Source of the DNA: Escherichia coli
GTDB taxonomy: Bacteria > Pseudomonadota > Gammaproteobacteria > Enterobacterales > Enterobacteriaceae
Strand: one strand, 5' to 3'
DNA: 12,747 nucleotides
Assembly: GCF_003334255.1 (NCBI RefSeq)
Contig: NZ_QOWU01000081.1
In this document: piece after piece, positions 4,456 to 5,667 of the stretch
Layout: every line of letters starts with the position of its first letter
Position numbering within the stretch: the first letter of the stretch is position 1
The notes under the pieces: model-generated
The model's database searches: none
Told to the model about the DNA's origin: nothing
What the model saw: the letters and a program-made list of their open reading frames with translations, nothing else
Program-made: the position numbers and the translations under genes

Positions 4456-4881
4456 CTAGTAACGTCTAAAATACCTAACATTTCCTTGATAAAATGCCAG
4501 TACACGCTGCATAGCTTCGCTCTTCCGGCACTCGCGACAGATTATGTTCAGGCGCCTGTCGTAGCGGCGTATTTCGCCGTCTGGTAACGACCAGATAAGG
4601 TCCGGATCAACCACTGCAGGTTTCTTCACCTTTGCCCTTGAGAGTTTTTTGCGAGCATTTTGCCAGTCCTTACGCGCCTGTTCAGACGGGAATAACCCGT
4701 AACCAGAGTTGTATACATCGCCACTGGCAACCAGCTCTCTGGCGAGAACACTCATCAGATATCTTGTCGCACCTGTCTTGGCTTCCAGTTGCCGCAACGT
4801 CTCGCGACCGCTCAGACGTACAAGTTCAACAACCTGCCCTTTAATTTTTTCCCGCTCTTCTTGTGTAAATACTTTTGCCAT
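4456..4881 (-). CDS. Hypothetical prophage protein, 141 aa (basic C-terminus, possible HTH-like segment); likely distal gene of the replication operon
   Basis: ORF track frame. The track start at 4896 is a TTG; the ATG at 4879-4881 is preceded by GGAGG at 5-nt spacing and lies 15 nt after the stop of the upstream gene. Confidence 0.6.
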   Translation of the reverse strand: MAKVFTQEEREKIKGQVVELVRLSGRETLRQLEAKTGATRYLMSVLARELVASGDVYNSGYGLFPSEQARKDWQNARKKLSRAKVKKPAVVDPDLIWSLPDGEIRRYDRRLNIICRECRKSEAMQRVLAFYQGNVRYFRRY

Positions 4882-4896
4882 AAGCGCCTCCGGCAA

Positions 4897-5667
4897 TCAC
4901 TTTTCCGATACAACACGGCGGGAAGAATCAGTAATCTGTCGAACAATATCCCGGTGCTTGTTCAGCTCCCGCAGCGCGGCGCAGACTCGCTCCCACTTCT
5001 GAACATCACTTTTCGCCCTGCGCAGCGCCAGGTTTGCCCTGCGAAGGGACGGAAAAATCAGCTCATCTGCTTGCGTTTCGGTAAACGATGGCAACGGCTG
5101 CACAATGTCCGCCACAGTTTCTGTTTTAATTTCTTCCTGTGTTGCGGCTTCCCGGACTGGTAACGCAGCACCTGCTGGCTGAGGAAAGGCCTTACCATCA
5201 CTTTCCGTTACCAGCGCGGCTTTCGGCTCTGCTGGTAAATTATCGCCCGGCATGCAGTAACGAAATTTACCGTTCTGATTAACGCGTGCCAGCCGCCCCG
5301 TTGCGGTTACCACCGCCAGCTTGGAAGCAACCTTGCGAGTACTGACACCGAACTTACCCGCCAGTTCCTCACACGTTTTAGCCCCATCCTGACCGATAAA
5401 CTCAATCATCATGTCTGCGGTAACTTTTTGTTCGACCTCCCCGGTCAGCATATCCTGTGCTTCAGATTTTACTGGCCGCTCTTCGGTTACCCGGGATTCA
5501 CCTTCGCCAGCCAGAAACCAGGTGTGACCAGTTTTATCAACGACGCCTTTTCTTTTGAGTTCCCACAGCTCGTTGACAGCCTCTTCACGACTGATTCCAA
5601 GGCGAGCTGCCACCACATGTGAAGAGGCTTTTTTCAGTGCTTTCAGTGCGTCAGATACGGTTTCCAT
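4897..5667 (-). CDS. Prophage protein, 256 aa, with two winged-helix-like segments (possibly DUF1627-like); tightly coupled downstream of the DnaC-like gene
   Basis: ATG 5665-5667 preceded by GGAGG at 8-nt spacing, 21 nt after the DnaC-like stop. Segments VVAARLGISREEAVNELWELKRKGVV and ELAGKFGVSTRKVASKLAVVTATGRL look HTH/wHTH-like. Family name is uncertain. Confidence 0.65.
   Translation of the reverse strand: METVSDALKALKKASSHVVAARLGISREEAVNELWELKRKGVVDKTGHTWFLAGEGESRVTEERPVKSEAQDMLTGEVEQKVTADMMIEFIGQDGAKTCEELAGKFGVSTRKVASKLAVVTATGRLARVNQNGKFRYCMPGDNLPAEPKAALVTESDGKAFPQPAGAALPVREAATQEEIKTETVADIVQPLPSFTETQADELIFPSLRRANLALRRAKSDVQKWERVCAALRELNKHRDIVRQITDSSRRVVSEK

Follow-up and report, generated by a model that had tools for sequence, protein, structure and literature searches.

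DUF1627 and DUF977 genes behind the DnaC-like loader gene of a Rac-like Escherichia coli prophage: families, conserved position and possible Ren-type function

What is the role of the two small genes that lie directly behind a helicase-loader gene in a prophage of Escherichia coli? The window, meaning the whole stretch of DNA that was analysed, is 12,747 nucleotides (nt) long and comes from E. coli contig NZ_QOWU01000081.1 (assembly GCF_003334255.1). On its minus strand, the gene for a DnaC-like loader is followed by two open reading frames (ORFs) predicted to encode proteins of 256 and 141 amino acids (aa). An earlier note, made from the sequence of this DNA alone, had described both as uncharacterised genes, translationally coupled to the loader gene and probably acting as replication-module accessories or regulators. 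We assign the 256-aa protein to the DUF1627 (YdaW) family and the 141-aa protein to DUF977, which by its sequence is a long form of phage lambda Ren, and we show that the position 3' of the loader gene is regularly filled by members of these families. We tentatively suggest that both proteins are accessories of the replication operon that shield phage replication from exclusion systems.

Families of the two proteins

Direct reading of the sequence confirmed the coordinates, lengths, gaps and GGAGG sites that the earlier note had given for this locus:

5689-6435, minus strand: DnaC-like helicase loader (YdaV type), upstream of the gene pair; stop codon 5689-5691; NCBIfam NF009043, 505 bits against a cutoff of 389; phrog_50
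5668-5688, minus strand: spacer of 21 nt from the loader stop to the DUF1627 start; GGAGG at 5680-5676, 8 nt before the ATG
4897-5667, minus strand: 256-aa ORF (YdaW/DUF1627); ATG 5667-5665, stop TGA 4897-4899
4882-4896, minus strand: spacer of 15 nt from the DUF1627 stop to the DUF977 ATG; GGAGG at 4891-4887, 5 nt before the ATG
4456-4881, minus strand: 141-aa ORF (DUF977/LygF, Ren-like); ATG 4881-4879

GGAGG occurs 13 times on both strands of the window, where shuffled sequences are expected to hold 19.3 copies, and because it is rare, two copies at the correct Shine-Dalgarno distance are not due to chance. The description of the genes as translationally coupled was overstated. Neither junction in the window has the overlap of stop and start codons expected of strict coupling; the spacers are 21 and 15 nt long and each gene has its own GGAGG. 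An alternative TTG start at 4896 would lengthen the second ORF to 146 aa, and the position of the GGAGG and the start used in RefSeq favour the ATG at 4881. The two ORFs share a reading frame and are parted by the TGA and five codons (4882-4899, minus strand). We considered programmed read-through of this in-frame TGA and rejected it, given that the fused form, a 403-aa protein in which TGA has become GGA (P0003), is a singleton and that the frame relation is lost in Shigella phage 75/02. A frameshifted 372-aa form (P0004) is likewise a singleton.

The profile search for DUF1627 that the earlier note had proposed gave a clear result. The 256-aa protein (RefSeq WP_021577380.1) matches Pfam DUF1627 (PF07789) with E 1.2e-97 over model positions 1-155 of 155 (residues 91-245) and phrog_630 with E 5.7e-132 over residues 1-252. 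It is 54% identical to YdaW (b1361) of the K-12 Rac prophage over residues 1-154 (BLASTP, E 2e-54), and the K-12 gene occupies the same place, 22 nt after ydaV where the window has a spacer of 21 nt. K-12 YdaW is 186 aa long and lacks the conserved C-terminal motif and helix that the intact window copy retains; it is short because Rac is deleted there. From these comparisons the 256-aa protein is identified as the intact, full-length form of K-12 Rac YdaW. When K-12 YdaW was compared directly with the 141-aa protein there was no alignment at all.

The nomenclature of these genes is a trap for the annotator. K-12 ydaW (NC_000913 1422752-1423312; L138 in our set) is a truncated DUF1627 gene and not a DUF977 gene, and in some phage records 'YdaW family' stands for the DUF1627 gene and 'LygF' for the DUF977 gene.

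With 155 clusters at 50% identity in a library of 1.84 billion representatives, the DUF1627 family is small. Three conserved blocks with variable linkers between them stood out when 38 members (20-66% identity) were aligned. AlphaFold2, run from this alignment, gave the 256-aa protein a mean predicted local distance difference test (pLDDT) score of 80.5. The two winged-helix-like segments described in the earlier note were recovered as winged helix-turn-helix (wHTH) domains with pLDDT above 95, and the protein is laid out on the minus strand as follows:

aa 1-55, nt 5503-5667, minus strand: first wHTH, predicted by AlphaFold2; a variable linker follows
aa 80-140, nt 5248-5430, minus strand: second wHTH, Ren-like, from AlphaFold2 and profile alignment
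aa 190-207 (approximate), minus strand: disordered acidic and proline-rich linker with the conserved motif [IL]P[SA]FT...DDL[IV][IV]P, from the 38-sequence alignment
aa 208-255, nt 4903-5046, minus strand: basic amphipathic C-terminal helix, predicted by AlphaFold2 with pLDDT above 90

Foldseek searches with the 256-aa model returned generic single or tandem winged-helix neighbours (ScpB, the SelB C-terminus, ESCRT-II, DDRGK1, Z-alpha, ArsR and MarR) at E 9e-4 or weaker. Searching the PDB by sequence gave nothing significant. Among the PADLOC defence models, the 256-aa protein had weak matches at the level of the wHTH (CARF3 and Csa3, E 5e-4 to 2e-3) and the 141-aa protein had none. Two candidate features of DUF1627 were rejected. 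A resemblance of its winged helices to Z-alpha, which binds Z-DNA, had E-values no better than those to ArsR or MarR, and in our reading the Asn that contacts Z-DNA has no conserved counterpart in the DUF1627 alignment. A possible beta-clamp-binding motif, VQ(P/S)LPSFT, was set aside as its Gln is not conserved across the family.

The 141-aa protein (RefSeq WP_001151161.1, named 'DUF977 family protein') had been given no family in the earlier note, but it is not an orphan. It matches Pfam DUF977 (PF06163) with E 1.2e-27 over model positions 1-133 of 134 and the whole profile of phrog_142, 'Ren-like exclusion protein', with E 1.5e-46; lambda Ren matches the same profile with E 1.6e-41. Lambda Ren itself has no Pfam family and no match to the DUF977 model. 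Alignment of a DUF977 profile with a Ren profile using hhalign nonetheless joined residues 13-132 of the former to residues 5-95 of the latter (probability 97.6%, E 3.7e-12), with an insertion in DUF977. The C-terminal motif NIICRECRKSEAMQRVLAFY of the 141-aa protein and NLVFKECRQSAAMKRVLAVY of lambda Ren are identical at 12 of 20 positions (BLASTP, E 5e-7), the shared pattern being N-x-[IV]-x-x-E-C-R-x-S-x-x-M-x-R-[VI]-L-x-x-Y, and gp52 of HK225 is an intermediate that bridges the two C-terminal motifs. The following features, all on the minus strand, make up the protein:

aa 7-65, nt 4687-4863, minus strand: wHTH, confidently predicted by AlphaFold2
aa 67-83, minus strand: helix, predicted by AlphaFold2
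about 27-40 aa between the winged helix and the C-terminal motif, minus strand: insertion relative to lambda Ren
aa 112-131, nt 4489-4548, minus strand: conserved C-terminal motif NIICRECRKSEAMQRVLAFY, from BLASTP; the C-terminal part of the AlphaFold2 model has low confidence

These profile and motif matches place the 141-aa protein in the lambda Ren family, as a long form. Lambda Ren (96 aa) is encoded by the third gene of O-P-ren and, like the 141-aa protein, has an N-terminal winged helix and the motif ECRxSxxMxRVLxxY; both genes are located at the 3' end of an operon for an initiator and a helicase loader. The two differ in that the 141-aa protein is about 45 aa longer, the loader here is DnaC-like where that of lambda is lambda P, and the 141-aa gene is parted from the loader gene by DUF1627 with no overlap, whereas O, P and ren of lambda overlap. 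Thus, in the window the 141-aa gene does not abut or overlap the 3' end of the loader gene as a ren gene does, although it is still the last gene of the same predicted operon. From DUF977 or 'LygF' of Salmonella and E. coli lambdoid prophages the 141-aa protein shows no structural difference, and it is a direct member of that group. Thousands of E. coli assemblies have annotated relatives that are 88-99% identical to it, and so do the phages mEp460, Rac-SA53 and HannyBb. The name LygF, as used in phage records, has no functional content. In Foldseek searches of the PDB and BFVD, the neighbours of the 141-aa protein were generic MarR-, GntR- and ArsR-type domains among which lambda Ren did not stand out structurally.

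The two proteins also appear to be related to each other. A profile of Ren and DUF977 aligned with the second winged helix of DUF1627 (96%, E 3.9e-9), and members of phrog_142 and phrog_630 cross-matched each other's PHROG in the winged-helix domain. This suggests, at the level of sequence profiles, that the second winged helix of DUF1627 and the winged helix of Ren and DUF977 have a common ancestry.

Two proteins from the representative library (P0241 and P0257) have an O-like or primosomal N-terminus fused to a C-terminal part of DUF1627 that is 80-99% identical to the window. Both probably arose by deletion in decaying prophages, with loss of the loader gene.

The statement that the genes are uncharacterised stands for their biochemical function and not for their families, which are already in Pfam, PHROGs and RefSeq. 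Both proteins were known to RefSeq, and the link to Ren is contained in PHROGs and used by phage annotators. What we add is an explicit demonstration at the profile level that DUF977 is a long Ren, the attribution of the name YdaW to the DUF1627 gene and not to DUF977, and a count of how regularly the position after the loader gene is filled. The value of this is mainly for annotation, in that both genes can be described as the accessory tail of a replication operon.

Operon membership and conservation of the position after the loader gene

The annotation of E. coli strain G1/2 has, on one side of this region, genes for an excisionase and integrase, an exonuclease, dicB and racR. On the opposite strand from racR are genes for a HTH (helix-turn-helix) protein (ydaS-like), a YdaT-family protein, a second HTH protein (O-like), an ATP-binding protein (DnaC-like), DUF1627 and DUF977, followed by QueH, hokD, a two-gene HTH pair, DUF968, RusA and an antiterminator. 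From this layout the window is recognised as a Rac-like lambdoid prophage of E. coli, and for such a prophage the two genes are structurally and genetically ordinary. The gene order in the window is racR, a PR-like promoter facing it, ydaS-like cro, a ydaT/cII-like gene, an O-like initiator gene with iterons, the DnaC-like loader gene, DUF1627 and DUF977. The elements upstream of the loader gene are:

8187-8216, minus strand: PR-like promoter facing racR, 10 of 12 matches in a consensus scan; the sole promoter-like site upstream of ydaS-ydaT-O-dnaC-DUF1627-DUF977
6442-7419, minus strand: O-like replication initiator (YdaU type) with a DnaT-like C-terminus; phrog_391, E 4e-115
6980-7069, inside the O-like gene: candidate origin iterons, six repeats with a period of 15 nt, TCAAnnnTTGAnGGG, partly palindromic

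In K-12, RacR represses ydaS-ydaT (PMC5700373). Downstream of the PR-like promoter (8216-8187), the consensus scan of the minus strand detected nothing promoter-like or terminator-like as far as position 3583, and the first terminator-like site was at 3154-3137. The simplest reading of this single promoter, with no promoter or terminator inside, is that the two genes come last in a RacR-controlled early-right operon. Co-transcription with the O-like and DnaC-like genes as a single predicted operon is thus supported by the sequence, and the membership in a replication module that the earlier note had proposed holds, both genes being at the distal end. The repeats at 6980-7069 encode a repeated DPS(N/T)(I/V)D peptide of the O-like initiator and look like origin iterons, comparable to the lambda ori inside O. 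A repeat search detected no iterons or operator-like repeats in the DUF1627 or DUF977 genes, and a search of positions 4300-5700 against Rfam gave no match to an RNA family.

We then surveyed the gene context of relatives. ORFs were called in 137 fetched loci and labelled with hidden Markov models of our own alignments and with reference proteins. Upstream genes were counted where at least 1.2 kb of sequence preceded DUF1627 (121 genes), a loader gene being scored when its end fell within -60 to +400 nt. Sequence diversity in this set came from a search of 50% representatives and from a scan with a divergent member (P0306); other homologue searches returned near-identical E. coli proteins, and the loci from a first IMG/VR scan were at least 96% identical.

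A DnaC-like or lambda-P-like loader gene was directly upstream of DUF1627 in 104 of the 121 loci, with a gap of 21 nt in 67 loci, an overlap of 4 nt (-4 nt) in 17 and a gap of 17 nt in 11. Most of the other loci had an O-like gene directly upstream. The position beside the helicase-loader gene is therefore kept in distant relatives. A DUF977/Ren ORF was immediately downstream of DUF1627 in 77 of 120 loci. On a divergent branch (L102-L137), DUF1627 is alone in this position and variable nin-type genes come next, and the ORFs downstream of DUF1627 in three further loci (L083, L085 and L087) are unrelated to Ren. Individual phages illustrate the range of arrangements. Shigella phage 75/02 Stx has the order O-like, DnaC, DUF1627, LygF; the PPompW phages have O, a short P-like gene, DUF1627 and then an unrelated gene; and a metagenomic contig has O/DnaT, lambda P, a small gene and DUF1627. 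In mEp460, LygF (DUF977) comes directly after the O-like gene. Homologues of Ren were found in 176 phage records, and in those whose contexts were read (HK225, Bas106, phiES15 and Klebsiella phage 6) the ren gene is right after the gene for P or a DnaC-like loader. PhiR46_1 is an exception, with DUF977 in an early operon that has no adjacent O/DnaC pair.

These results show that the slot 3' of the helicase-loader gene is regularly filled by Ren, DUF977, DUF1627 or DUF1627 with DUF977, whatever the initiator or loader. The earlier note had named homologues outside replication modules, together with deletions without effect, as what would refute it; homologues were mostly inside such modules, and the PhiR46_1 group was outside.

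Two records in this collection have unexpected host labels. One assigned to an 'Actinobacillus phage' carries an 84%-identical E. coli DUF1627 region and one assigned to a 'Campylobacter phage' carries a 100% identical lambda ren/P segment (PP818812.1 and MW057783.1). Both look like E. coli lambdoid sequence.

Possible functions of the gene pair

We wished to determine what function best accounts for these families and their position. By analogy with lambda Ren, we incline, at a little below even confidence, to the reading that both proteins are replication-operon accessories of the Ren type that shield phage replication from abortive-infection or exclusion systems. A role as core replication enzymes or factors, or as classical repressors, is improbable. 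According to this proposal, DUF1627 and DUF977 would be made only after derepression of the prophage, together with the replication proteins. As small, non-essential winged-helix proteins they would associate with the replication complex or its DNA, and this association would keep the onset of replication from triggering exclusion by the host or a resident prophage, of the RexAB or retron type. The winged helices may bind nucleic acid or protein, and the C-terminal helix of DUF1627 may serve in self-association or in binding of a partner.

Several observations on lambda and K-12 led us to this reading. In lambda, O, P and ren overlap and are co-translated, as stated in the supplement to Thomason et al. 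(2021, bioRxiv). Heteroimmune lambda ren mutants grow poorly on Rex+ lysogens and their suppressors map in O and P (Toothman and Herskowitz 1980, as related in Thomason et al. 2021). The same supplement lists two-hybrid signals of both RexA and RexB with Ren, and RexB-Ren is among several single-vector Ren interactions in a yeast two-hybrid map (Rajagopala et al. 2011). An overexpression screen (Bobonis et al. 2020, preprint) recovered K-12 ydaW among prophage genes able to block RcaT, the toxin of retron-Sen2. This result applies to DUF1627 and not to DUF977, because the direct comparison above makes ydaW the homologue of DUF1627. That the slot recombines freely with different initiators and loaders, and that lambda ren is dispensable, tilts the balance toward counter-exclusion.

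Other points weigh against it. The support from Ren and exclusion is by analogy. For lambda Ren itself, Thomason et al. (2021) suspect a direct role in replication instead. The Ren two-hybrid signals are weak, and Ren was a promiscuous prey in the yeast map (Rajagopala et al. 2011). What the RcaT screen overexpressed was the K-12 allele of ydaW, which is truncated at its C-terminus (Bobonis et al. 2020, preprint). The link between DUF1627 and Ren through one wHTH is modest evidence of shared function, because winged helices match one another easily at the profile level, and the structure searches returned generic wHTH neighbours. A role in replication would account equally well for the very tight linkage to the loader gene. 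If counter-exclusion is nevertheless correct, it would give a function to two DUF families found in most E. coli genomes and would reopen the question of the role of lambda Ren.

A broader form of this proposal, which we regard as possible though rather doubtful, is that the place after the loader gene in lambdoid initiator-loader modules serves as a dedicated 'Ren slot' for a superfamily of winged-helix proteins. Short Ren, long Ren/DUF977 and tandem YdaW/DUF1627 would all belong to it and would mask the nascent replication complex from abortive-infection sensors such as RexAB and retron toxin-antitoxin systems. A prophage with both DUF1627 and DUF977 would then counter two different sensors.

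Alternatively, the two proteins could be true replication accessories that act on the O-some/loader/DnaB complex or on origin DNA, any exclusion phenotype being secondary. Such proteins could keep the initiator stable, help to free the helicase from the loader, tether replicating DNA or set the time of the switch from theta to rolling-circle replication. We regard this direct, though non-essential, role as the main rival and as somewhat unlikely. As would be expected of such accessories, the position is right behind the loader gene in 86% of loci, in some with the 4-nt overlap, and co-transcription with the O-like and DnaC-like genes is predicted. The lambda ren- suppressors in O and P also point in this direction, as do the natural fusions of an O-like N-terminus with a DUF1627 C-terminus (P0241 and P0257), though these are probably deletion products. 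However, lambda ren is dispensable for replication in established lambda genetics (Thomason et al. 2021), and K-12 Rac has kept only a truncated ydaW. Moreover, the slot holds Ren, DUF977, DUF1627 or both with unrelated loaders and initiators, which is unexpected for docking on a single protein and argues against a fixed partnership with one phage replication protein.

A role as transcription regulators is less likely still. In this case the proteins would be MarR/ArsR-like winged-helix DNA binders that tune delayed-early or nin-region genes of the phage, or host genes, after induction. YdaW is listed among the putative transcription factors of unknown function in E. coli (PMC9308461). The Foldseek neighbours are mostly MarR, GntR and ArsR proteins, and there are weak profile matches to MarR, ArsR, MntR, Crp-type and FeoC HTH families. 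These matches are far below the family cutoffs (NCBIfam MntR, 19.4 bits against 153; ArsR/SmtB, 16.8 bits against 55), and the 141-aa protein has no NCBIfam match. The Pfam HTH matches have E 0.027 or worse. The likeness to MarR, ArsR and GntR factors and to tandem adaptors (ScpB, the SelB C-terminus and ESCRT-II) is in the fold of the domain and, for DUF1627, in the tandem layout. The window proteins differ from all of these: they are not significant members by sequence, have neither MarR-type dimerisation helices nor a ligand domain, and stand in another genomic role. No repeated operator-like sites were detected in or beside the two genes. Winged helices are also common as protein- and RNA-binding modules, among them the top tandem matches ScpB, SelB, ESCRT-II and DDRGK1. 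We know of no demonstration that lambda Ren regulates transcription.

The two ORFs are genuine genes that are under purifying selection and are carried by functional, inducible phages (Shigella phage 75/02 Stx, PhiR5_2 and Rac-SA53). The ratio of nonsynonymous to synonymous substitution rates (dN/dS) relative to Shigella phage 75/02 was 0.39 for DUF1627, 0.20 for DUF977 and 0.16 for the DnaC-like gene; the long disordered linkers of DUF1627 are in keeping with its higher ratio. The 1.3-kb stretch that contains the pair is 100% identical to several complete E. coli chromosomes, has a match of at least 80% coverage in 1146 of 5426 complete E. coli genomes and a partial match in 4615. The truncated ydaW of K-12 Rac and the fused or frameshifted singletons P0003 and P0004 could indicate functionless passengers or decaying ORFs of a cryptic prophage, but this is highly improbable in view of the intact, near-identical copies in those 1146 genomes, the retention in inducible phages, the dN/dS of 0.2-0.39 and the conservation of the domains across relatives of 20-66% identity.

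Neighbouring genes of the prophage

The next gene on the minus strand, 153 nt beyond the Ren-like gene, is queH (3616-4302; epoxyqueuosine reductase, DUF208 type, phrog_3217). No terminator is predicted in this interval, and queH, a gene for tRNA or nucleoside modification carried by the prophage, may share the transcript of the replication operon. Further along this strand is a hok/sok type I toxin-antitoxin locus (3223-3548), with a Hok ORF at 3223-3435 (hokD in RefSeq) and a sok antisense RNA region at 3373-3548 (Rfam RF01794, 120 bits). Beyond it, models of the RosmerTA system match 1323-3057 on the minus strand, with RmrT at 2407-3057 (E 4.6e-25) and RmrA, an HTH and peptidase-like antitoxin, at 1323-2429 (E 6e-105). 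The pair forms a cassette for anti-phage defence that the prophage carries in its nin-like region.

At the position of sieB in K-12 Rac, beyond racR and a DUF1391 gene and on the opposite strand, is a 148-aa ORF (9327-9773, minus strand). It has no similarity to SieB and no Pfam family, matches phrog_6315 of unknown function and may be a different superinfection-exclusion gene. On the plus strand, the window also carries the antisense RNA DicF at 10238-10289 (Rfam RF00039, 62 bits) and the cell-division inhibitor gene dicB at 10477-10665.

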